Source of the DNA: a virus
Lineage: Duplodnaviria; Heunggongvirae; Uroviricota; Caudoviricetes
IMG/VR virus record: IMGVR_UViG_2563366806_000004
Span: 1-44,644 of that record
DNA: 44,644 nucleotides
Direction: 5' to 3' (one strand)
Part shown: piece by piece, positions 6,608-25,585 of the stretch
Numbering within the stretch: the stretch's first letter is position 1
Layout: every line of letters begins with the position of its first letter
Program-made: the position numbers and the translations under genes
The notes under the pieces: model-generated
Told to the model about the DNA's origin: nothing
The model's database searches: none
Seen by the model: the letters and a program-made list of their open reading frames with translations, nothing else

Positions 6608-7081
6608 CTAGAACGGAATATCCGAATCGTCGAAGTTCATAGGTGGTTCGCTGTGATCCCCCTGCTGCTGAGGTTGCTGTCTTTGTTGCTGACCGCTATT
6701 TCGCTGAGGAGAAGACTGTTCATTGCCTCCTTGCTTGCCACCAAGCATTTGCATGGTTCCACCAACGCCCACGATGACTTCGGTAGTGAACCGATCCTGT
6801 CCGCTTTGATCCTGCCATTTTCTTGTCCGCAATTTGCCTTCAAGATAAACCTCAGAGCCTTTTCGCAGATATTCGCTGGCAATTTCTGCCAGTTTCCCGC
6901 TCATTACCACGCGGTGCCACTCCGTCTGCTCCTTTTGCTCTCCAGTTTGCTTATCACGCCATTGTTCTGACGTAGCAACTGTAAGGTTTGCAAATGCCGT
7001 TCCTGATGGTGAATATCTGATTTCTGGATCATGCCCAAGGCGACCAATAATGATCACCTTATTTACGCCTCTGCTTGCCAT
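6608..7081 (-). CDS. ssb: Single-stranded DNA-binding protein
   Basis: 157-aa [26 protein letters not shown]...TEWHRVV...DIPF; closely resembles E. coli SSB including the acidic C-terminal tail. Confidence 0.9.
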
Positions 7082-7789
7082 TTATGCCGCCTGTTTTAGT
7101 TCGTTAACTCTGATGTTCATTACCTGAACGCATTTAGCCTGCGCCTCCTCGTTGCCAGCCATTAATTGCCAGTCACGCTGATAACGCTCGATGAGTTTTT
7201 TCTTGTCAGTTTCTGTTGACGCATAATCGCTGAAGTCTTTCAGGATTTGTTCGCAGTCAACCGATGGAGATTTCTGGTTGATATTTTCTGGTGATGGTTT
7301 GTTATCTGATGCTGGGATTGCCCATCCCGGAAGCGATGGAGGGAGCCAGTAAAATCCTGTTCCATCTTTCAGTTTTGCCCTGTGCCATCCCTGCTTTTTA
7401 TCGAGAGATGTTTGTGCGAAACCTTCCTCAAGGTTATACAGATACCGACCGATTCCCCACTGAACGGCAGCGCGCTTCATTGCACCGGAACGACCACCTT
7501 TGACGGCTTCTACCTGCGTGTTTTCAGCAGCATCCCATTTGGTTACCCATTCGGAATCAATCTTGATTGATATGCCGCATTCAACTCCGCCGTTGTTGGG
7601 AATATCGCGGTATTCATTGCGCCATCCTGCTTTGCCGCAAACATCGTCCAGGCGTTTCATGATTGCCCGGTTCGTGACATAAGCCAGCACCATAGCCCAC
7701 ACCTTGCCATCGCGTGTTTTACCGCTTTGCTGTATTCGCCATTCGATATCTTCAGGGCTGAATGGCTCATCGAATTTATTCAAATCCAT
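7082..7789 (-). CDS. Rad52/Sak-like single-strand annealing protein
   Basis: 235-aa ORF; region GGVECGISIKIDSEWVTKWDAAE...GAMKRAAVQWGIGRYLY resembles Rad52-family annealing proteins; occupies the position of lambda bet. Confidence 0.55.
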   Translation of the reverse strand: MDLNKFDEPFSPEDIEWRIQQSGKTRDGKVWAMVLAYVTNRAIMKRLDDVCGKAGWRNEYRDIPNNGGVECGISIKIDSEWVTKWDAAENTQVEAVKGGRSGAMKRAAVQWGIGRYLYNLEEGFAQTSLDKKQGWHRAKLKDGTGFYWLPPSLPGWAIPASDNKPSPENINQKSPSVDCEQILKDFSDYASTETDKKKLIERYQRDWQLMAGNEEAQAKCVQVMNIRVNELKQAA

Positions 7790-7986: not shown

Positions 7987-8096
7987 TTAGACCTCCATTT
8001 TCTGTAGGCTTCGACGGCCTCACGAAACATCTTTTCATCGCCAATAAAAGTGGCGATAGTGAATTTAGTCTGAATAGCCATAAGTGTTTTATCCAT
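7983..8096 (-). CDS. kil: Kil-like host-killing protein
   Basis: MDKTLMAIQTKFTIATFIGDEKMFREAVEAYRKW closely resembles the lambda Kil N-terminus (MDQTLMAIQTKFTIATFIGDEKMFREAV); an in-frame upstream ATG at 8186 would give a 67-aa form. Confidence 0.55.
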   Translation of the reverse strand: MDKTLMAIQTKFTIATFIGDEKMFREAVEAYRKWRSK

Positions 8097-8259
8097 TTTT
8101 TGGAACTCTTGGCTGATTAAGTACGTCGATGAGTCGTTTCCATCCGTCACGTAATTTACGGGTGATTCGTTCAAGTAAAGATTCATTTAGTTGGAAGGCA
8201 CCCATGCGAGCGCCTCCCGCGATTGCGTAAATCATGGGTGGTTCCTTATGTTGGTTTTA

Positions 8260-9228
8260 TTAGTAGGTTATTTTTGTTGCGAATACTTCGCCTTTTACGA
8301 TGGCTGTTATGATATTTTTAGCAACATCTTCTGATGCGCCAACCTTGATAAGGTCAGCAAGTATTTTGTTATTTACTTCTTTCCGGTGAGCTTTATCCTT
8401 TGCTCTACGCTCTTCTTCTTCCTTGATTCTTTTTTCTTCTGCTATTCTGGCTTGCTCTTTTGCTTCAGCCTCGCGCCGGATTCGTTCAGCCTCCTCCTGT
8501 GCTTTTCGGCGTTCTGCTTCAATTGCCGCCTGCTTTTCTCTTTCAGCTCGTTCTGCTGCCTCTTTTGCTTCGCGCTGTGCTCGTTGCTCGGCTTCAATGC
8601 GTTCACGCTCTGCACGTTCCGCTGCGGCCTTAGCTTCTGCTTCTCGCCTTGCTGCTGATTCAATTTCGGCTTTTGCCTTTGCTTCGGCTTCTGCTCTGGC
8701 TTTCTCTTCAGCTTCTCTTTTTAAGCGTTCTTCATGCTCTCGCTTTTCCTGCTCCGCTTTGAGTCTTGCCTCTTCTCTTTGGCGGTCAAATTCGCGATCC
8801 ATCAAAATAGCTATTTCATGATCAGACTCAATTTGCTTTGCGAGAGCTTCAGCTGCTGCCTTAGCTTCTTCTTCGGCTTTAATCCGCGCCTGTTCCTCCT
8901 CATAATCAGTAAGAGGCTGGCGAGCCTTGGCTTTCAGTTCATCAAGGCGATCGCGCACTGTCTTGCGGTTGGCATCAATTAGCTTTGGAATTTCCTTCAG
9001 TTCAGCAACAAGGTCTTTGCCAAGACCATCGAGATATGTTTTCGTCTGCGCAACTTTATACGCCAGAGAAGCGATCTCCTTTCTGCCCTTTGCCGTTGTG
9101 ATATCAGGCACAAAGGACATAACTTCACGTTCAACCTTTTGAAGGATTTCTTCAATCTGGTCTGCAGACTGAAATACAGTCATTGCATTTGCTTTTTCAA
9201 TAAAAACTAAGTCTGTTACTTCACTCAT
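8260..9228 (-). CDS. Lys/Ala/Glu/Arg-rich coiled-coil protein (TolA-like repetitive helical region)
   Basis: 322 aa from ATG at 9228 preceded by GGAGGA; the track ORF extends to 9282 but would run through a terminator hairpin; ~170-aa low-complexity stretch of EAKAKAE/ERAERE repeats. Confidence 0.6.
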   Translation of the reverse strand: MSEVTDLVFIEKANAMTVFQSADQIEEILQKVEREVMSFVPDITTAKGRKEIASLAYKVAQTKTYLDGLGKDLVAELKEIPKLIDANRKTVRDRLDELKAKARQPLTDYEEEQARIKAEEEAKAAAEALAKQIESDHEIAILMDREFDRQREEARLKAEQEKREHEERLKREAEEKARAEAEAKAKAEIESAARREAEAKAAAERAERERIEAEQRAQREAKEAAERAEREKQAAIEAERRKAQEEAERIRREAEAKEQARIAEEKRIKEEEERRAKDKAHRKEVNNKILADLIKVGASEDVAKNIITAIVKGEVFATKITY

Positions 9229-9240
9229 ATATCCTCCATC

Positions 9241-9267
9241 AAAAAAATCGCCCTCACATCGGAGGGC
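9241..9267 (-). terminator. Intrinsic terminator upstream of the coiled-coil gene
   Basis: Stem GCCCTC/GAGGGC with 6-nt loop followed on the minus strand by a run of seven T. Confidence 0.55.
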
Positions 9268-9362
9268 AAAGAAGATTTCCAATAATCAGAACAAGTCGGC
9301 TCCTGTTTAGTTACGAGCGACATTGCTCCGTGTATTCACTCGTTGGAATGAATACACAGTGC

Positions 9363-9575
9363 TTATTCGCGAGCTTTGAGCATGGCATCAGCAATAAAGT
9401 AGGCATCATCTGCTAATTCTTTGTACTGTGGTGAATTCTGTCCACCGCCAAAGGAATGTCCGTCCCATCTGCGCACTATTGCTGCCATAGCCTTAGCAGC
9501 GAAGTAATCACGTAATGTCGCATCACTTGCCATTTCTGGGCGTTTGATATCTGCTTCATAAAACTCGCACATCAT
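9363..9575 (-). CDS. Hypothetical protein
   Basis: 70-aa ORF, stop/start overlap with the upstream gene. Confidence 0.4.
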   Translation of the reverse strand: MMCEFYEADIKRPEMASDATLRDYFAAKAMAAIVRRWDGHSFGGGQNSPQYKELADDAYFIADAMLKARE

Positions 9576-9850
9576 TCACCTCCCAGAGCCTTGCTGATTG
9601 CTGCCTTGGCTCGTTTGTATTCGGTTAACTCTCTGCACCCTTCGTCATGCTCGTAAAGGAAGACAAGCTCTTGCAGTGCTTCAAGCAAATCAGGAGCTGC
9701 TGCTATCAGTAGCGCATCCTCCCTTTCATTTCTTGTTGCTGCTTCAATGTATGTGTCACCAATCGTCACACCATGGAACGTAGTCATCATCTCGTTGACG
9801 TTTCTAACCGTGTACTTCCATTTACCAGGCGTACCCTTAAACTCTTTCAT
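9572..9850 (-). CDS. Hypothetical protein
   Basis: 92 aa from ATG at 9850 with upstream GAGGTGGA; track ORF starts at GTG 9856. Confidence 0.45.
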   Translation of the reverse strand: MKEFKGTPGKWKYTVRNVNEMMTTFHGVTIGDTYIEAATRNEREDALLIAAAPDLLEALQELVFLYEHDEGCRELTEYKRAKAAISKALGGE

Positions 9851-9857
9851 ATCCACC

Positions 9858-9898
9858 TCTGTTGTTTATGCCAAAAATAAAGGCCGACTATGCGGCCT
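9858..9898. repeat. Direct repeat copy 1 (~40 bp, contains terminator hairpin)
   Basis: TCTGTTGTTTATGCCAAAAATAAAGGCCGACTATGCGGCCT, repeated with two differences at 10401..10439. Confidence 0.8.
9871..9898 (-). terminator. Intrinsic terminator after the 156-aa gene
   Basis: Stem AGGCCG/CGGCCT with loop ACTATG, followed on the minus strand by TTATTTTTGG. Confidence 0.55.
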
Positions 9899-10367
9899 AG
9901 TAGAATACCCAATTTTCTGTTTCTTGGTTGTGTCCAAAGTTATATTCAATATCTGGTGTTGATGTATCAATATTCTTCATCCCATCAACAAGAGTTGATA
10001 CAACAGCCAAATCTTGTTTGATTCTCATCAAATGGTATTTCTTCCGGCGCAATAAACTTTCAATGGCAAGTTTCTTCGTCGGGAACGCAAAAGATCTTTC
10101 TGCATTTTTTGCTACTTTCTTAATTGCATATCTATTTCTCCTTTGTTTCCATTCCTGTAACCACTGATTTGGTGCTGGTTTAAAATTAACAATCCAATGC
10201 GCAGGAACCAACCATGCATAATGCTCTGTCTGATGAAAAGCTATATATTGAAGTGCGAATATTTTGATTCCATCTTCTTCAACTGTCGCTTGGAATCTCC
10301 AGAAAACAGGCATTCCATCATGTTCAGTTTCTGATTCAGGAAAAGGTACGCTCCATGATTTTGTCAT
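9897..10367 (-). CDS. Hypothetical protein encoded by an AT-rich cassette
   Basis: 156-aa ORF with AT-rich codon usage unlike neighbours; own leader TTATTTGAGGTGAGATATG and own terminator; no recognisable motif. Confidence 0.55.
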   Translation of the reverse strand: MTKSWSVPFPESETEHDGMPVFWRFQATVEEDGIKIFALQYIAFHQTEHYAWLVPAHWIVNFKPAPNQWLQEWKQRRNRYAIKKVAKNAERSFAFPTKKLAIESLLRRKKYHLMRIKQDLAVVSTLVDGMKNIDTSTPDIEYNFGHNQETENWVFY

Positions 10368-10400
10368 ATCTCACCTCAAATAATTCAGTGCAGTGTTTAT

Positions 10401-10439
10401 TCTGTTGTTTATGCCAAAAGAAGGCCGACTATGCGGCCT
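10401..10439. repeat. Direct repeat copy 2 (contains terminator hairpin)
   Basis: TCTGTTGTTTATGCCAAAAGAAGGCCGACTATGCGGCCT. Confidence 0.8.
10412..10439 (-). terminator. Intrinsic terminator after the membrane-protein gene
   Basis: Same AGGCCG-actatg-CGGCCT hairpin as at 9881..9898, followed on the minus strand by a T-rich tract. Confidence 0.55.
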
Positions 10440-10443
10440 GAAA

Positions 10444-10893
10444 TTACTTAACCAATGATGCTGCATATTCGATAAGGTAAAGATTTGGGGTCAGCCAAAT
10501 TTTTAACCAAGTCATATTGGTTACTACACCAATAATAAAAATCCCCCACAGAGTCAAAACTACAACCAATGGCATGATAAGAAGATTAATATCACCTTTG
10601 CTATCCCAAACCATTGTCGGCCTGTATTTGGGATTTCCTTTCTCCCATGAATATCCTTCATCACCGATTTTACCTGTCTCAACTCTTTGGCACTGCTTCT
10701 TCATAAACCAGAAAACCAGTGGGATTGTTAGAATGGCCATTAATGTTTTAATCAGACTGTCAACCATATTCCATAGCAGCAACTGATGAACAACATCAGG
10801 AATCTGTGCCTGGCTAAATGAAACAGCCGCGTCTATTCCATTACTGGCTTTTTGCAGTAGTTCTACGAGAATCTTGTTTGCTTGTTCTTCCAT
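10444..10893 (-). CDS. Two-pass membrane protein encoded by an AT-rich cassette (possible superinfection-exclusion or abortive-infection function)
   Basis: 149-aa ORF; two hydrophobic helices (LIKTLMAILTIPLVFWFM and INLLIMPLVVVLTLWGIFIIGVV); leader identical to that of the 156-aa gene; position left of N is where lambda and P22 carry sieB. Confidence 0.55.
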   Translation of the reverse strand: MEEQANKILVELLQKASNGIDAAVSFSQAQIPDVVHQLLLWNMVDSLIKTLMAILTIPLVFWFMKKQCQRVETGKIGDEGYSWEKGNPKYRPTMVWDSKGDINLLIMPLVVVLTLWGIFIIGVVTNMTWLKIWLTPNLYLIEYAASLVK

Positions 10894-10947
10894 ATCTCAC
10901 CTCAAATAAGTGGTTTGCTGCGAAAGTAAATACGCTTAAGTTACCTG

Positions 10948-11085
10948 TTATTTATCCCACCAAGTTCCGTATCTATCTATCCAGTTACACCAATCATCGA
11001 CACTCCATTTTGTTGTGTCGCATTTTGGCAACTGGCATGAATATCTACCTTCTTTGTAAAGTCGGCGTTTGACTTTCTTGAGCAT
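10948..11085 (-). CDS. Small Cys-containing hypothetical protein
   Basis: 45-aa ORF MLKKVKRRLYKEGRYSCQLPKCDTTKWSVDDWCNWIDRYGTWWDK directly after the N stop codon with GAGGTGAG Shine-Dalgarno; below the ORF-track length cut-off. Confidence 0.4.
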   Translation of the reverse strand: MLKKVKRRLYKEGRYSCQLPKCDTTKWSVDDWCNWIDRYGTWWDK

Positions 11086-11093
11086 GGCTCACC

Positions 11094-11426
11094 TCAATCG
11101 TAATAAGCTGGAATTGATTTTCCGCGTTGCTTCTGGCGGCCTGAGCAGGTCAACCCCATTTCACTGCGTGGCTTGCTGTACCATGTGCGCTGATTCTTGC
11201 GCTCAATACGCTGCAGGTTGCTTTCAATCTGTTCGTGGTATTCAGCCAGCACCGTAAGGTCTATCGGATTCAGTGCGCTTTCTACTCGTGATTTCGGTTT
11301 GCGATTCAGCGAGAGAATAGGGCGGTTAACTGGTTTTGCGCTTACCCCAACCAACAGGGGATTTGCTGCTTTCCATTGAACCTGTTTCTCTGCGCGACGT
11401 TCGCGGCGGCGTGTTTGTGCATCCAT
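11094..11426 (-). CDS. N: Antitermination protein N
   Basis: 110-aa ORF MDAQTRRRERRAEKQVQWKAANPLLVGVSAKPVNRPILSL, recognised as lambda N; nutL lies upstream. Confidence 0.9.
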   Translation of the reverse strand: MDAQTRRRERRAEKQVQWKAANPLLVGVSAKPVNRPILSLNRKPKSRVESALNPIDLTVLAEYHEQIESNLQRIERKNQRTWYSKPRSEMGLTCSGRQKQRGKSIPAYYD

Positions 11427-11694
11427 CTGGATTCTCCTGTCAGTTAGCTTTGGTGGTGTGGTGGCTGGTAGTCTAGCTCCAGCTTGTTGAGTCTCATTCG
11501 GAGGGGTATAACCGGCACCCCAGCGATTTTTCCATGCGACAACGTGCGCGTTATGGCGGCCTTATCGCCCGCGGCTCCCCATCTCGTCCACGCTATTGCT
11601 AGCGTTGGGAGCGCTTCACCGCTCAACAGTAGGTAAGCACTTGCCAGTGACTAGCTGGCTTCACCACACCCCAAAGCCTTCTGCTTTGAATGCT

Positions 11695-11725
11695 GCCCTT
11701 CTTCAGGGCTAAATTTTTAAGAGCC
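11695..11725 (-). promoter_or_regulatory. nutL: nutL (boxB hairpin GCCCTGAAGAAGGGC plus boxA-like GCTCTTA)
   Basis: Reverse complement of 11691..11724 reads GCTCTTAAAAATTTAGCCCTGAAGAAGGGCAGCA, matching lambda nutL. Confidence 0.8.
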
Positions 11726-11764
11726 TCACCTTCATGGTGGTCAGTGCGTCCTGTTGATGGCTAG

Positions 11765-11828
11765 ATAATCACAAATTGTGTTCGTGCTGTCAACACGAAA
11801 TGTGATTGTTTTTATCACAACACGTGTT
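11765..11828 (-). promoter_or_regulatory. pL promoter with three operator sites (oL)
   Basis: Three 15-bp sites of form ATCACA-N3-YGTGTT at 11768..11782, 11792..11806, 11814..11828; minus-strand -35 TTGACA (11793..11788) and -10 GATTAT (11770..11765), 17-nt spacer. Confidence 0.65.
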
Positions 11829-11865
11829 TTCATTGATTTTTAAGGTAATTTAATTTTCTTTGGGC

Positions 11866-11889
11866 AACAAAAAACCCGCCGAAGCGGGT
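11866..11889 (-). terminator. Intrinsic terminator after the repressor gene
   Basis: Stem ACCCGC/GCGGGT with loop CGAA, followed on the minus strand by TTTTTTGTTG. Confidence 0.6.
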
Positions 11890-11914
11890 TTGATGTTTTT
11901 AAGTGGCGGGTATA

Positions 11915-12556
11915 TCAGGAGAATTTCATCATCATCTGCACTGCTACGCCGATTATCTTGCAGTTGCCGTCGATTGGGATCAACGGATAGGCAGGGTTAA
12001 GCCCTTTCAGGTATTTGTTACCGCCATCAATGATTAGCTTCTTGAACGTGGCTTCATTAGCATCTGTCAGCTTCGCAACTACCAGGCTTCCATTAACGGC
12101 TTCCTTTCCAGTGTCGAACAGAACCAGCATACCCTCAGGAACGCTAAGGCCGGTAGGAGCTGTCATTGAGTCGCCCTGAACCCTGAGCCAGAAGGCGTCA
12201 CCGACAACGTGACAATCTGATTCATACCACTCATCCACTGCCTGAGGGTTGTACGGCTCTACGGCCTCACTCCATGCACCTGCGCTAACCCAGCTAATCA
12301 ACGGAAACTTTTCCCCTGGCTTGTATTGTCCCTGATAGTTGTCGCCAAAAAGCAGTTCTGCCGGAGCGACGCCCAAAGCTTTAGCTATTACCTCTGCGTC
12401 ATCAACACTAACGCTTCTGGTTCCTGATTCATAGTTGCCGATCCGAGATTGTGAAGCCCAGCCGCAAAGCTCCGCCAGAGCCTTCTGTGAAAGCCCTTTA
12501 TCTTCCCGTAATCGCTTGATACGCGCGGCGATAGTTTCTGTTCTGTTCATGCGCAT
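11915..12556 (-). CDS. cI: CI-like prophage repressor (XRE-type HTH plus S24 LexA-like autopeptidase domain)
   Basis: 213-aa ORF; N-terminal HTH (LSQKALAELCGWASQSRIGNYESG); Ala-Gly cleavage site (SAGAW); GDSM serine motif and downstream Lys; flanked by oL and oR; not lambda cI. Confidence 0.8.
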   Translation of the reverse strand: MRMNRTETIAARIKRLREDKGLSQKALAELCGWASQSRIGNYESGTRSVSVDDAEVIAKALGVAPAELLFGDNYQGQYKPGEKFPLISWVSAGAWSEAVEPYNPQAVDEWYESDCHVVGDAFWLRVQGDSMTAPTGLSVPEGMLVLFDTGKEAVNGSLVVAKLTDANEATFKKLIIDGGNKYLKGLNPAYPLIPIDGNCKIIGVAVQMMMKFS

Positions 12557-12561
12557 TTTAT

Positions 12562-12627
12562 ATCACATTCCGTGGTTTAAGGCTTTACACGATTTGTGTT
12601 GACTATCAATCACAATATGTGTTTAAT
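12562..12627 (+). promoter_or_regulatory. pR promoter with three operator sites (oR)
   Basis: 15-bp sites at 12562..12576, 12586..12600, 12609..12623 matching ATCACA-N3-YGTGTT; -35 TTGACT 12599..12604, -10 TTTAAT 12622..12627. Confidence 0.65.
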
Positions 12628-12660
12628 AAAGACTGAGTGAACTAGCTCTTAAGGAAACCT

Positions 12661-12876
12661 ATGAACAACATTGCCAACGAACGGAAAAAGCTTGGCATCA
12701 CTCAATCTGCGTTAGCAGGCGCGTGTGGCTGGAACCAGTCCCGCTTAGCTAACTACGAGTCAGGTATCCGGACTCCAGATTTAGAGTCGTGCCGTCGCCT
12801 GGTAAAGGCGCTGAATAAATTGGGGAGCAAGACAACGCTAGATGGCTTGTTCCCGCCGGAACACAAAGCCGCTTAA
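12661..12876 (+). CDS. cro: Cro-like HTH regulator
   Basis: 71-aa ORF with XRE-type HTH (LGITQSALAGACGWNQSRLANYESG), first gene rightward of oR, RBS AAGGAAAC. Confidence 0.7.
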   Translation: MNNIANERKKLGITQSALAGACGWNQSRLANYESGIRTPDLESCRRLVKALNKLGSKTTLDGLFPPEHKAA

Positions 12877-12884
12877 GACATTCC

Positions 12885-12916
12885 CGCTCTTACACATCCC
12901 AGCCCTGAAAAAGGGC
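12885..12916 (+). promoter_or_regulatory. nutR: nutR (boxA CGCTCTTA and boxB GCCCTGAAAAAGGGC)
   Basis: boxA at 12885..12892 and boxB hairpin at 12902..12916 match lambda nutR. Confidence 0.8.
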
Positions 12917-12995
12917 ATCAAATTAAACCACACCTATGGTGTATGCATTTATTTGCATACATTCAATCAATTGTTATCTAAGGAAATACTTACAT

Positions 12996-13274
12996 ATGCA
13001 ACTTACAAGTACTCGCAAGAAAGCGAATGCAATTACAAGCAACATCCTGAATCGAATTGCTGTACGTGGTCAGCGAAAGGTTGCCGACGCGTTAGGGATT
13101 AATGAATCGCAAATTTCGCGATGGAAAGACAGCTTCATCCCAAAAATGGGAATGCTTCTGGCTGTTCTTGAATGGGGTGTTGAAGACGAGGAGTTGGCGG
13201 AACTGGCTAAGAAAGTAGCCAGAATGCTGACAAAAGAAAAAGCCCCGAAGAACGGCGAATTCTTCGAGGCCTGA
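12996..13274 (+). CDS. cII: Transcriptional activator CII
   Basis: 92 aa from ATG 12996 with the lambda cII leader TTATCTAAGGAAATACTTACATATG; KVADALGINESQISRWK...PKMGMLLAVLEWGV resembles lambda CII. Confidence 0.8.
   Translation: MQLTSTRKKANAITSNILNRIAVRGQRKVADALGINESQISRWKDSFIPKMGMLLAVLEWGVEDEELAELAKKVARMLTKEKAPKNGEFFEA
13231..13270 (-). terminator. Minus-strand intrinsic terminator overlapping the cII 3' end (oop-RNA-like position)
   Basis: 11-bp stem with one mismatch (GCCCCGAAGAA/TTCTTCGAGGC), 7-nt loop, followed on the minus strand by TTTTTCTTTTG. Confidence 0.45.
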
Positions 13275-13308
13275 TGTAGAAAGACTGGATCAATCCACAG
13301 GAGTAATT

Positions 13309-13953
13309 ATGACATACGAAAATGACAAATTCCAGGTTCTGAAGAGCATGAAGGTGCCAGATGATTTTAAATCAAATGGCTTTGTTTATGTGCTTTCTAA
13401 TGAGTGCATGCCAGGAATTTATAAGATTGGGATGACTAAGCATTCACCAGAAGTTAGGGCTAAAGAAATTTCAGCCTCTACTGGCGTTCCTAAGCCATTT
13501 AAGGTGATAGCAGCCTTTCATTCAAATAATCCCGCATCAGATGAAAAACTCATTCATAAAGCCTTTGCAAAAGAGAGGCTTAGTGATAATCGAGAGTTTT
13601 TCAAGCTTGAAGATAATGAGCTTTCTGAATCTCTAAATGAAATAAGGGCGCTGGTTGGCCCTGAAAGAAATGGCGAGACGGCAGAATACGCAATTTACGA
13701 CTCATTCATTTCTTTTCGCCATGAAAATGAGCTTGATCTTAATGAGGAGCTTATAGAGCAAGGTCTGGGTAGTGTAGTTGGTCATCTTCCTGCGGTGAAA
13801 AATTTCCTTATTCGCGCCGGAATTGATTACGCGAAGCAACTGATAAGCAAATATAACTCATCGATAGTTATTAATACAGATGGCAGTGTGGTGATGGTTA
13901 AGTCTCTTGAAGCCCAATGCTTTGATGCGGAGGTTGGAAATGAGCCTGGCTGA
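13309..13953 (+). CDS. T5orf172 / GIY-YIG-like domain protein (accessory gene between cII and O)
   Basis: 214-aa ORF, RBS CAGGAG; N-terminal NGFVYVLSNECMPGIYKIGMTKHSPEVRAKEIS...PFKVIAAFHSNN...REFFKL resembles the T5orf172 (GIY-YIG-like) domain; AT-rich; 3' end overlaps O start by 14 nt. Confidence 0.6.
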   Translation: MTYENDKFQVLKSMKVPDDFKSNGFVYVLSNECMPGIYKIGMTKHSPEVRAKEISASTGVPKPFKVIAAFHSNNPASDEKLIHKAFAKERLSDNREFFKLEDNELSESLNEIRALVGPERNGETAEYAIYDSFISFRHENELDLNEELIEQGLGSVVGHLPAVKNFLIRAGIDYAKQLISKYNSSIVINTDGSVVMVKSLEAQCFDAEVGNEPG

Positions 13954-17169: not shown

Positions 17170-17348
17170 GACGACAGCGACGAAGCATCACCGACATCAT
17201 CTGCGAAAACTGCAAATACCTTCCAACGAAACGCTCCAGAAATAAACGCAAGCCAATCCCAAAAGAATCTGACGTAAAAACCTTCAACTACACGGCTCAC
17301 CTGTGGGATATCCGGTGGCTTAGAGAACGTGCGAGGAAAACAAGGTGA
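17166..17348 (+). CDS. ninE: NinE
   Basis: 60-aa [63 protein letters not shown], near-identical to lambda NinE. Confidence 0.8.
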
Positions 17349-17524
17349 TTGACCAAAATCGAAGTTACGAACAAGGAAGTGTCGAGCGAGCTTTAACGTG
17401 CGCTAACTGCGGTCAGAAGCTGCATGTGCTGGAAGTTCACGTGTGTGAGCGTTGTATATATGAATGCTTAAATATGGTGGAACATAATGAGAAATATAAG
17501 CAACATAGACGAATTAAGAAATAA
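17345..17524 (+). pseudogene. ninF: ninF, 5' fragment interrupted by an HNH-gene insertion
   Basis: GTG-start ORF encodes ...ESVERALTCANCGQKLHVLEVHVCE as in lambda NinF, then diverges into AT-rich inserted sequence and stops at 17522..17524. Confidence 0.65.
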
Positions 17525-17993
17525 ATTATCATATGATGATGTTTTAGGTGTACTTAGATGGAAAGTGTCTCCTTCTAATAATGTTAAGGTTGGCAGTGTT
17601 GCTGGTTACATTAGGAGTGATGGTTATAGGATGTTAACTATCGATGGTGTAATTACTTATGCTCACCACGTTATATGGATGATAAATAATGGTGAGATTC
17701 CATTAGGGTATAAAATTGATCATATAAATGGAGTAAGGTCAGATAATAGGCTATCTAATCTTCGATTGGTTACACACCAACAGAATGCACAGAACCAAAA
17801 GAGAAAAATAACAAATTCGTCAGGAGTGACTGGAGTATATTTCAATAAAGAGAGATGTAAGTGGATTGCGAATATATGCGTAGATGGGCGCACCAAATAT
17901 CTTGGAATATTTGCTAGCATCATTGACGCTATTACAGAAAGGAAGAGGGCAGAAAAAGAACTGGGTTTTCATGAAAACCATGGTAGACCATAA
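17487..17993 (+). CDS. HNH homing-endonuclease-like protein inserted in ninF
   Basis: 168-aa ORF; AT-rich; RBS GGTGGA; resembles free-standing HNH homing endonucleases; lambda-like ninF sequence is found on both sides. Confidence 0.65.
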   Translation: MRNISNIDELRNKLSYDDVLGVLRWKVSPSNNVKVGSVAGYIRSDGYRMLTIDGVITYAHHVIWMINNGEIPLGYKIDHINGVRSDNRLSNLRLVTHQQNAQNQKRKITNSSGVTGVYFNKERCKWIANICVDGRTKYLGIFASIIDAITERKRAEKELGFHENHGRP

Positions 17994-18054
17994 CTGCGCA
18001 GAACTGATGAGCGATCCGAATAGCTCAATGTACGAGGAAGAAGACGATGAGTGA
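17980..18054 (+). pseudogene. ninF: ninF, 3' remnant
   Basis: Encodes (MVDHN)CAELMSDPNSSMYEEEDDE matching the lambda NinF C-terminus; out of frame with the 5' fragment. Confidence 0.6.
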
Positions 18055-18556
18055 TGTTAAAGAAAAAGATATCCCCGGCTTTGAGGGTATATATAAAGTA
18101 ACTGAAAATGGAGACATCATTTCATGCCGTAAATCAAAAAAATTATCTCATGGCATTAAACCAGGAGGATATGCATTTGTCGGTCTGTATCCAGGTGGCG
18201 GGAAAAGACCATCATATAAAATGGTTCACAGAATTGTTGCAGAAGTATTTATTGATAACCCAGATGGCAAACCGGAAGTTAATCACAAGGATGGAAATAA
18301 ACTTAATAATAAAGTTGAAAATCTTGAGTGGGTAACGCGAACAGAAAATGCGAAACATGGATTTGATTCCGGATTGCTTGTTCATGGGTTTAATCATCAC
18401 TTCTGCAAACTAACGCCAGAACAAGTGAAATCAATATATAAATCAAAAGGCAAATACAGAGATATAGCCAAAGAATTTGGTGTTTGTGCGCAGACAGTGT
18501 GCAACATAAAAAACAAATCAGCGTACCGACGTTTTTTGGAGGGGATTGATGTTTAG
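18047..18556 (+). CDS. Second HNH homing-endonuclease-like protein
   Basis: 169-aa ORF; GFEGIYKVTENGDIIS N-terminal motif and HKDGNKLNNKVENLEWVTRTEN HNH core; AT-rich. Confidence 0.65.
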   Translation: MSDVKEKDIPGFEGIYKVTENGDIISCRKSKKLSHGIKPGGYAFVGLYPGGGKRPSYKMVHRIVAEVFIDNPDGKPEVNHKDGNKLNNKVENLEWVTRTENAKHGFDSGLLVHGFNHHFCKLTPEQVKSIYKSKGKYRDIAKEFGVCAQTVCNIKNKSAYRRFLEGIDV

Positions 18557-23960: not shown

Positions 23961-25585
23961 TCATGCCTCTCCCGTTTGAATTCGATTTCAGAAACCCTGA
24001 TTACCAGATGGTTTTTGAATGGCGGATGGAGCGCTTACAGCGCATTCGCCAGAACCCTGAAATGCTGCCAGCGCTAAAGCAGTTTTATCGCACCAACCCG
24101 GCACAGTTCATCATCGACTGGGGTATGACTACTGACCCGCGTAACATCGATTATGGCCTGCCGGTCACCATCCCTTTTCTGCTGTTCCCGAAACAGGAAG
24201 AGTGGATTCACTGGATCATGGAGCGGCGCGAACGACTGGAGAACGGCATCACCGAAAAGAGCCGCGAAATGGGGCTCAGTTGGACCGCGATCGGGCTGGC
24301 CTGCTCGCTTTGTCTCTTCAACAAAGAAATGGTTATCGGTTTCGGCTCCCGTAAAGAGGAATACGTCGACAGCACCGGTGACCCGAAGGCGCTGTTCTGG
24401 AAGGCGCGAAAGTTCGTGGAAACACTGCCCATCGAGTTTCGTGGTTCGTGGGACGAGAAGAAGCATGCGCCGTATATGCGCGTTGAGTTTCCCGATACTG
24501 GCGCGGTCATCAAAGGCGAGGCTGGCGACAATATCGGTCGTGGTGACCGTACCACGCTCTACCTGGTGGATGAAGCTGCATTCCTCCAGCGTCCTCTGTT
24601 GATTGATGCGGCGCTGTCGCAAACCACCCGTTGCCGTATTGACCTGAGCTCGGTTAATGGCATGGCGAACCCGTTCGCGCAGAAGCGTCACGGCGGGAAG
24701 ATACCGGTATTCACATTCCACTGGCGGGATGATCCTCGCAAGGATGAAGAGTGGTATCGCAGGGAGTGCGAGAAAATCGACAATCCGGTGGTGGTGGCGC
24801 AGGAACTTGACCTGAACTACAGCGCATCTGCGGAAGGCGTCCTGATCCCGTCCGACTGGGTACAGGCTGCCGTCGACGCGCATATCAAACTTGGTATTCA
24901 GCCAACGGGCAAGCGACTGGGCGCGATGGACGTCGCCGACGAAGGCCGGGACAAAAATGCCTTTTCGACCCGTCACGGCTTCCTTCTGGAGAACGTGCGT
25001 GAATGGTCCGGCGTGGGCAGCGACATTTACCAGTCCGTTGAGAAGGTCTTCGGCTTTTGCGAACAGGACAACCTCGAAGAATTTCGCTTCGACGAGGACG
25101 GCCTGGGCGCTGGCGTTCGCGGCGATGCACGCGCCATCAACGAACTGCGTAACGCTGCGCGCCGACCGTCAATACTCGCCACACCGTTTCGTGGTAGCGG
25201 CGCGGTATTTGATCCGGACGATGAAGCGGTGCGCGGGGACAACGGACAGGCCGCACGCCTGAACAAGGACTTCTTCGCCAACGCCAAGGCCCAGAGCTGG
25301 TGGTGGCTACGCAAGCTTTTCCAGAACACCTATCGCGCCGTGGTTGAGGGCATGGCCTACAACCCGGACGAAATCATCTCAATCAGCAGCGCCATGGCGA
25401 GCAAAGACAAACTCATCATCGAGCTGTCGCAGCCGACCTACTCCATTAATGGCGTGGGGAAAATCGTTGTTGATAAACAGCCTGATGGCACCAAGTCGCC
25501 GAACCTCGCCGACTCGGTGATGATCAGCTACGCGCCAATGAATTCAGCCCTGAACATCTGGGAGCTGCTAGGGAGACAGGCCTGA
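23957..25585 (+). CDS. Terminase large subunit
   Basis: 542-aa ORF; ATPase Walker B-like LYLVDEAAF; followed by portal gene. Confidence 0.75.

Follow-up and report, generated by a model that had tools for sequence, protein, structure and literature searches.

Two tandem accessory genes left of N in a lambdoid phage genome as probable cassettes exchanged at a shared leader and terminator block

Why should two unrelated genes in one phage genome begin with the same leader and run into the same terminator-like hairpin? The question is raised by a stretch of DNA of 44,644 nucleotides (IMG/VR virus record IMGVR_UViG_2563366806_000004; the whole stretch is called the window here), which by its gene content belongs to a lambdoid phage or prophage. 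Left of its gene for antitermination protein N, the window carries two AT-rich genes on the minus strand, which encode a membrane protein of 149 amino acids (aa) and a soluble protein of 156 aa. The locus is very probably an N-proximal accessory region of the lambdoid early-left (pL) operon, with two tandem single-gene cassettes that are exchanged at shared adaptors. The parts of the two cassettes, in the direction in which the minus strand is read, are the following.

10891..10909, minus strand: leader copy A, which reads TTATTTGAGGTGAGATATG on the minus strand; the 149-aa gene has its Shine-Dalgarno sequence (GAGGTGA) and, after a spacer, its ATG here.
10444..10893, minus strand: cassette 1, the gene for the 149-aa two-pass membrane protein (phrog_3054, Sf6 gp34 family), located before the first predicted terminator after pL.
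10401..10439, minus strand: terminator repeat copy 2, with a hairpin at 10422-10439 and then TCTTTT.
10384..10400, minus strand: spacer from terminator copy 2 to leader copy B; the minus strand reads ATAAACACTGCACTGAA from 10399 to 10383.
10365..10383, minus strand: leader copy B, the identical 19 nucleotides, including the ATG of the 156-aa gene.
9897..10367, minus strand: cassette 2, the gene for the 156-aa soluble protein (phrog_1636, 933W L0079 family).
9858..9898, minus strand: terminator repeat copy 1, with a hairpin at 9881-9898 and then TTATTTTT.

The leader, CATATCTCACCTCAAATAA, is 19 nucleotides long and occurs at 10365-10383 and 10891-10909 with no mismatches and no further copy in the window. 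Two matches were found in none of 100 dinucleotide-preserving shuffles, even with three mismatches allowed. A weaker third copy, CATGGCTCACCTCAA, lies at 11083-11097 and forms the start of a 45-aa DUF5484 open reading frame (ORF). The repeat of about 40 nucleotides, at 9858-9898 and 10401-10439, is composed of the blocks TCTGTTGTTTATGCCAAAA and AAGGCCGACTATGCGGCCT, both of which are identical between the copies; a 2-nucleotide indel and one substitution, located between the two blocks, are the sole differences. The 18-nucleotide hairpin core, AGGCCGCATAGTCGGCCT, has exactly two copies in the window, a number reached in 0 of 100 shuffles.

On the minus strand, which encodes every gene of this region, each hairpin resembles an intrinsic terminator, with a 6-bp stem that includes five G-C pairs, a 6-nucleotide loop, and then TTATTTTT or TCTTTT; a G+C-rich hairpin followed by a U-run on the transcribed strand is thus found in both repeat copies. 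The folding energies are -14.1 and -12.3 kcal/mol (z -2.0 and -2.6). Both hairpins are predicted terminators, at which transcription would be expected to end. No Rfam family matched the region 8000-13500 at E <= 1. The TAG stop codon of the 156-aa gene overlaps the first stem bases of its hairpin, the 3' end of terminator repeat copy 1, AACAACAGA, merges into the Shine-Dalgarno sequence of the next gene, and the final base of ATAAACACTGCACTGAA (10383) is the first base of leader copy B. The spacer before leader copy B also includes GCACTG, which recurs as a mosaic joint.

A sequence-only reading of this DNA had pointed to an identical 19-nucleotide leader at both genes, to near-identical repeats of about 40 bp with a shared hairpin, to two ORFs of lower G+C content than their neighbours, and to their position left of N, at the slot where lambdoid phages typically carry genes such as ral and sieB. 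Each of these points was borne out. Both ORFs are present at 9897-10367 and 10444-10893, N was found at 11094-11426, and the slot matches that of lambda. The G+C content is 36.7% for the 156-aa gene and 38.9% for the 149-aa gene, against a window mean of 50.3% (standard deviation 5.6% for 450-nucleotide windows, 3.7% of which have a G+C content of 39% or less).

If the shared sequences are adaptors, then other genes should be found between them, and the sequence-only reading had proposed a search for alternative cargo in lambdoid relatives. At least 119 IMG/VR loci were retrieved by exact match to the repeat, and six GenBank phages were added; the families and counts given for this set are those among the matches listed. 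Thirteen ORF clusters end at the hairpin, and because three of these are fragments of the window's own two families, about ten unrelated families of cargo remain. The most frequent are the 149-aa family (at least 50 loci), a 207-aa protein with an Nmad5 domain (at least 42), the 156-aa family (at least 13) and a 107-aa protein (at least nine). Several further ones, Cys-rich and zinc-ribbon-like proteins among them, appeared a single time each. At the other border, the ATG of the leader is the exact start of at least seven ORF clusters, which include the window's two families and one cut copy of the 156-aa gene, and which represent four to five gene families.

The sequence after the hairpin is equally variable. 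The conserved block invariably reaches ...GGCATAAACAACAGA, beyond which at least five different continuations were observed: sequence shared by lambda and Sf6, three variants of a 92-aa gene, other genes, or the spacer and leader of the 156-aa gene. Genes are arranged combinatorially around this hub, and dozens of distinct orders exist between N and the cIII or D3-orf53-like genes. Thus, content is variable between conserved flanking genes, as in an accessory region, and both the 41-nucleotide block and the 19-nucleotide leader are short conserved elements at a gene border with non-homologous neighbours, as in a boundary sequence. The tandem order of the window recurs in a few IMG/VR loci (L030, L072 and L061). 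The tandem form is rare in E. coli: of 5426 complete genomes, 3 match positions 9850-10950 with a coverage of 80% or more, and 1338 contain parts of the region.

Several unrelated cargo genes in this set run into the hairpin and stop at a TAG in its loop, or at a TGA in the ral-type variant (loci L005, L007, L107 and others; lambda, L127, at 1270-1295). Because these genes read into the loop stop codon, all their products have -KAA, -EAA or -SAA at the C terminus. The terminator therefore doubles as a universal supplier of stop codons.

Two loci have more elaborate arrangements. Phage mEp213 (L005, JQ182733 30879-32636) contains two N genes, each with its own set of accessory genes and its own copy of the terminator repeat, and looks like a duplicated or stacked N-proximal module. 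In L061 (IMGVR_UViG_2630968826_000009), the leader occurs three times and the exact terminator hairpin twice, and the 149-aa gene is separated from an intact 156-aa gene by a cut, additional copy of the latter. This extra copy could come from a further round of unequal exchange, or it could be an assembly artefact, as the contig contains an N.

Joints were mapped by pairwise blastn of the window against Bas106, Gally, EH2085, Sf6, 933W and lambda. They fall at 10383/10891, 9898, 10386 and 9362, and so coincide with the short conserved sequences. Phage CurroJimenez_Bas106 has N, the DUF5484 ORF and the 156-aa gene, and it has no 149-aa gene. It is collinear with the window at 99.8% up to 10383 and again from 10891; the extra 507 bp of the window (10384-10890) are therefore bounded by the two 19-nucleotide leader copies. 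Gally and Stx2_EH2085 have the reverse content, with the 149-aa gene present and the 156-aa gene absent. Relative to these two phages, the extra segment of the window is 9363-10385, joined at GCACTG. In 933W, the leader and the 156-aa gene (L0079) directly follow N, and the terminator repeat after the 156-aa gene and the two genes beyond it are absent. Each cassette therefore exists alone elsewhere, and the central proposal of the sequence-only reading, cassette exchange at the repeats, gains support from the alternative cargo, the phages with a single cassette and the breakpoints on the repeats.

The two cassettes are similar in unit length (a spacing of 526-543 nucleotides) and in G+C content, as would be expected if a local duplication in this genome had copied leader and terminator together and the genes had then diverged. 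However, the two genes belong to different PHROGs and their products differ in architecture, with a two-pass membrane protein in one case and a soluble protein with a beta unit and a helix in the other, and each cassette is found alone in other phages with the same flanks. Local duplication is hardly credible, and it was rejected on the ground that the two proteins are unrelated.

Exchange at shared adaptors would proceed as follows. In each cassette, an AT-rich cargo gene, unrelated to that of other cassettes, would lie between a conserved initiation leader, with its strong GAGGTGA Shine-Dalgarno sequence and ATG, and the terminator hairpin with the adjoining GGCATAAACAACAGA. These two borders would be short boundary sequences common to many lambdoid phages, and homologous or microhomology-mediated recombination at these sequences would swap, add or delete cargo while the genes stay translatable and the operon stays intact. 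Host RecA or the phage's own Rad52/Erf-type annealase could carry out this recombination. The window does encode a Rad52/Erf-like annealase and a single-stranded DNA-binding protein (SSB), in keeping with such exchange. The tandem would then be what is expected if a phage with the 149-aa cassette alone and one with the 156-aa cassette alone had undergone an unequal crossover.

Several observations weigh against this reading. A length of 19 nucleotides is short for RecA-dependent exchange. The joints lie not only at the two repeats but also at GCACTG and at the stop codon of the 156-aa gene. Distant relatives carry the same two families elsewhere, with other leaders and terminators, and retrieval of loci by exact match to the repeat biases the apparent ubiquity of the repeat. 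The stem is only 6-7 bp, and termination and antitermination are predictions from sequence. Insertion is indistinguishable from deletion in these comparisons. Finally, the leader could persist as a good ribosome-binding site and the hairpin as a good terminator, with joints that were illegitimate and then selected. Absence of the repeats from relatives, which the sequence-only reading had named as evidence against its proposal, was encountered in part: the distant relatives lack these repeats, and 933W lacks the terminator repeat after its 156-aa gene.

Illegitimate recombination followed by selection would account for some of these points. By this explanation, joints arise at random and those at gene boundaries survive, while leader and terminator persist for their use in translation and termination and have no role in exchange. 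This is the favoured general model of phage mosaicism (PMC3029335), and it is compatible with the joints outside the repeats and with the other terminators of the distant relatives. However, about ten unrelated genes lie directly upstream of one near-identical 41-nucleotide block, and the sequence directly downstream of it takes at least five forms. Because many different hairpins terminate transcription, function alone would not demand one near-identical block. Moreover, the indel between Bas106 and the window is bounded by perfect 19-nucleotide direct repeats. We therefore regard random joints as an unlikely origin of this locus, although individual joints may have arisen in this way, and continue with exchange at the shared leader and terminator block.

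Both elements have counterparts in lambda. There, ral is followed by AAAGCTGCCTGATAGTGGCCTTTATTTTTGGCATAAATAACAGAATAAACACTGCACTGTGTATTCATTCC..., a variant of the hairpin, and then by the same downstream block (TTTATTTTTGGCATAAATAACAGAATAAACACTGCACTG...), and the sequence before orf28, CCACTATTTAAGGTGATATATGGAAGAA, agrees with the window leader CCACTTATTTGAGGTGAGATATGGAAGAA. It follows that leader and terminator block have long belonged to the early-left operon of lambdoid phages and that lambda orf28-ral is the equivalent cassette: it occupies the same slot left of N, has a version of the leader before orf28, and has the same post-hairpin sequence after ral. It differs in its cargo, Ral (restriction alleviation), where the window has two uncharacterised proteins; in its hairpin, which is the variant AAAGCTGCC...GTGGCCTTT; and in number, with one unit in lambda versus two in the window.

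Phage Sf6 provides a link to earlier work. Its record, AF547987, carries bsq1-n features and reportedly goes back to Casjens et al. 2004. An annotated "boundary sequence" in that record, bsq4 (24156-24268), aligns to window positions 9250-9362 and directly adjoins the Sf6 copy of the repeat. The Sf6 "tL2A" terminator aligns to 9248-9269, and Sf6 gene 34 is an allele of the gene for the 149-aa protein. PMC3029335 credits Clark et al. 2001 (HK620) with the idea that lambdoid genomes recombine by homology at short conserved boundary sequences. The elements of the window resemble those boundary sequences in that they are short, conserved, located at gene borders of an early operon and flanked by unrelated genes. 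They differ in that the annotated bsq4 ends just short of the hairpin element, so the pair of hairpin and leader may not have been singled out before. Papers on phage L, epsilon34 and Chi hotspots discuss early-left mosaicism and do not discuss this element. The boundary-sequence idea is thus prior art that dates from 2001, and the window adds a tidy new instance in a known hotspot, not a novel type of system.

The other features of the region, and those outside it that bear on the argument, are these.

1419-2489: lambda-type integrase, the only integrase, 8 kb from the cassettes.
6608-7081: SSB.
7082-7789: Rad52/Erf-type annealase.
9244..9362, minus strand: conserved non-coding block common to lambda (downstream of ral) and Sf6 (bsq4 in its record).
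9363..9575, minus strand: 70-aa gene, absent in phages whose repeat runs directly into the segment shared by lambda and Sf6.
9572..9850, minus strand: 92-aa gene (phrog_1273), one of several alternative continuations after the repeat.
10948..11085, minus strand: 45-aa DUF5484 ORF between N and the first cassette, with the weak third leader copy at its start.
11094..11426, minus strand: antitermination protein N (Pfam N36, E 1.2e-25; phrog_271).
11695..11709, minus strand: boxB-like hairpin GCCCTGAAGAAGGGC, which follows the pL-like promoter.
11765..11793, minus strand: pL-like promoter TTGACA-17-GATTAT, with 10/12 matches, just downstream of the repressor gene at 11915-12556.
11915-12556: LexA-like / cI-like repressor.
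12936-13274: CII protein.

No strong sigma-70-like site other than this pL-like one was found upstream of the cassettes. Within 8000-13500 just two sigma-70-like sites were found, pL and one within the 70-aa gene, and the interval from pL to the first hairpin (10439-10422) contains neither a terminator-like nor a promoter-like site. The boxB-like hairpin at 11695..11709 we take to be identical to the nutL boxB of lambda. The DUF5484 ORF had gone unmentioned in the sequence-only reading.

Both cassette genes would thus be expressed from pL and gated by the hairpins and N. Because the 149-aa gene precedes the first predicted terminator, it would be on the immediate-early, N-independent transcript and its product would be made alongside N. 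Expression of the 156-aa gene and of all genes beyond it on the left would require N-modified polymerase to read through the hairpins, a dependence on N that we infer from this layout.

The conserved block at 9244..9362 contains the tL2A-like terminator at 9248-9269 and an inverted repeat at 9325-9362. The arms of the latter (GCACTGTGTATTCATTC ... GAGTGAATACACGGAGC on the minus strand) are 17 bp long and 82% complementary, with no T-run. This inverted repeat is kept in lambda, Sf6, 933W and many of the loci, and the GCACTG joint lies at its edge.

A different account of both genes is that they are morons or prophage-expressed defence genes, that is, independent units with their own promoter and terminator that exclude phages as lambda sieB/rex or HK97 gp15 do. 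The sequence-only reading had hinted at such a role in superinfection exclusion or abortive infection. Several exclusion proteins are small two-pass membrane proteins, and the 149-aa protein is likewise small and crosses the membrane twice. The locus also occupies the position of sieB in lambda. Like morons (Juhala et al. 2000; reviewed in PMC3594210), the cassettes deviate in composition from their neighbours, have a terminator for each gene, and are inserted between genes that are adjacent in relatives. They differ from morons in that no promoter of their own is predicted: the leaders leave 17-55 nucleotides without a -35/-10 match, and no sigma-70-like site precedes either gene. The cassettes look like parts of the pL operon and not like autonomous units. 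Because neither gene has a predicted promoter, both look more like early genes driven from pL than like exclusion genes expressed from a prophage. Neither protein has a credible PADLOC match or similarity to lambda SieB (BLASTP E 29 and 0.21), and Pfam, solved structures and fold comparison likewise gave no similarity to known exclusion or defence proteins. A tested homologue of the 149-aa protein, the 121-aa allele orf47, was screened against eight phages and is not among the genes with a reported phenotype (doi 10.1101/2023.04.06.535777). An origin as morons or defence genes is accordingly quite improbable, and nothing found here supports the hinted exclusion role.

In layout, the locus also invites comparison with integron gene cassettes, which similarly are promoterless single genes, each with a hairpin element, arranged in tandem behind a common promoter and variable in content. 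However, no IntI-type integrase adjoins the array, the hairpin is a 6-7-bp terminator stem and not an attC site, and joints occur at several short homologies instead of at one crossover point. An integron-like mechanism was rejected on the grounds that the only integrase is of the lambda type and 8 kb away, and that there are multiple joints. The resemblance is architectural only.

The 149-aa protein has two hydrophobic segments, at about residues 43-65 and 100-127, which agrees with the two-pass membrane architecture proposed by the sequence-only reading. It is also allelic. The termini of the family are nearly invariant (residues 1-42 and 129-149), and the core is variable. At least three intact alleles, of 149, 140 (Sf6 gp34) and 121 aa (SPN9CC orf47), were found, at loci that include L028, L090, L092 and L001 among the matches listed. 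They share near-identical N-terminal 39 and C-terminal ~21 residues, and their cores, which span the first transmembrane segment, the loop and the second transmembrane segment, are unrelated. At the DNA level, the window and Sf6 align only at the ends of the gene. Truncated forms of 80-127 aa also occur.

Homologues with about 61-64% identity are present in Pantoea stewartii and Enterobacteriaceae BIT-l23 (L129-L131 and L133), where their place is not beside N but in the late region, between the holin, endolysin and spanin genes and terminase. The 149-aa protein had no match in Pfam, PADLOC or a PDB profile search. Its AlphaFold2 model is poor (predicted local distance difference test, pLDDT, 62), and a Foldseek search of the model against BFVD found nothing at E <= 0.001. 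We lean, though with considerable doubt, towards a role of the protein at the inner membrane while infection proceeds. More speculatively still, the protein might be an immediate-early inner-membrane factor in which the terminal helices form a scaffold and a swappable core sets specificity, as a polymorphic determinant of exclusion or counter-defence; the conserved gene ends, together with leader and terminator, would then be the homology arms for allele replacement. This allelic architecture, combined with the immediate-early position, is the most interesting open point of the locus.

The 156-aa protein belongs to a wider family of phage proteins. An exhaustive profile search found 87 representatives, all of 130-170 aa. 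Neither the window protein nor the 47 representatives that were scanned matched a Pfam family, and the only PHROGs matched are of unknown function; phrog_1636 and phrog_3054, to which the 156-aa and 149-aa proteins belong, are both annotated "unknown function". The 156-aa protein had nothing credible in Pfam, PADLOC or a PDB sequence profile search. Its AlphaFold2 model, also poor (pLDDT 59) and, like that of the 149-aa protein, built on a shallow alignment, shows a beta unit at its N terminus as well as a basic stretch and a long helix, and gave no Foldseek match against PDB or BFVD at E <= 0.001. The impression that neither protein contains a recognisable motif thus held in profile and structure searches, which returned no Pfam, PADLOC, PDB or fold match.

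Homologues of the 156-aa protein in Pectobacterium and Brenneria (L132 and L136) lie just upstream of xis-int. In most of seven loci in distant relatives, with homologues of either protein, the gene is still preceded and/or followed by a hairpin and T-run of its own. Both families are conserved in prophages of several Enterobacterales genera, and therefore both are real genes. Our best guess is that the two proteins are early accessory functions in conflict between phage and host or between phages.

Relatives of this cargo have been studied experimentally. The "Ral" region was ranked second among the accessory regions inspected by Silas et al. 2023 (doi 10.1101/2023.04.06.535777, Supplementary File 2), who also synthesised accessory-region genes. 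Their region coincides with the hypervariable slot described here, and two relatives of its cargo were tested there; it differs from the present definition in that it was delimited by gene content and not by repeats. One of these genes, orf184 (mEp213 AFM76385.1), is the 107-aa cargo that ends in the present hairpin, and it triggers the gop-beta-cII cell-death system (doi 10.1101/2023.04.06.535777). The other, orf47 (SPN9CC AEW47744.1), is the 121-aa allele of the membrane protein that was expressed in the eight-phage screen described above. The 156-aa family is not present in the gene set of that study, and a literature search on L0079 gave only unrelated papers among the matches listed.

Other unusual genes were observed elsewhere in the window. 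A second patch of low G+C content (down to 33.6%) at 17300-18556, just after ninB, contains tandem HNH_3 endonuclease genes at 17487-17993 and 18047-18556, the latter with NUMOD4, which are probably homing-endonuclease insertions. Between cII and the replication genes, 13309-13953 encodes a 214-aa protein with a T5orf172/MUG113 domain; Bas106 has a gene annotated as hypothetical at the matching position. The gene at 8260-9228 encodes a 322-aa protein (D3 Orf53 / Sf6 gp33-like, phrog_1376) with a long charged central region rich in E, A, K and R, and shows an extreme AT skew in the composition profile.

The locus is a very clean natural example of the shuffling of accessory genes in lambdoid phages. 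The terminator block of about 41 nucleotides and the 19-nucleotide ribosome-binding leader act as universal adaptors, between which any cargo would be translated while the operon presumably continues to work under N antitermination. Both elements can serve as search handles for uncharacterised early accessory genes in prophages, and orf184, which triggers a host cell-death system, is a precedent for what cargo harvested in this way may do. They also suggest ready-made homology arms for engineering the slot.

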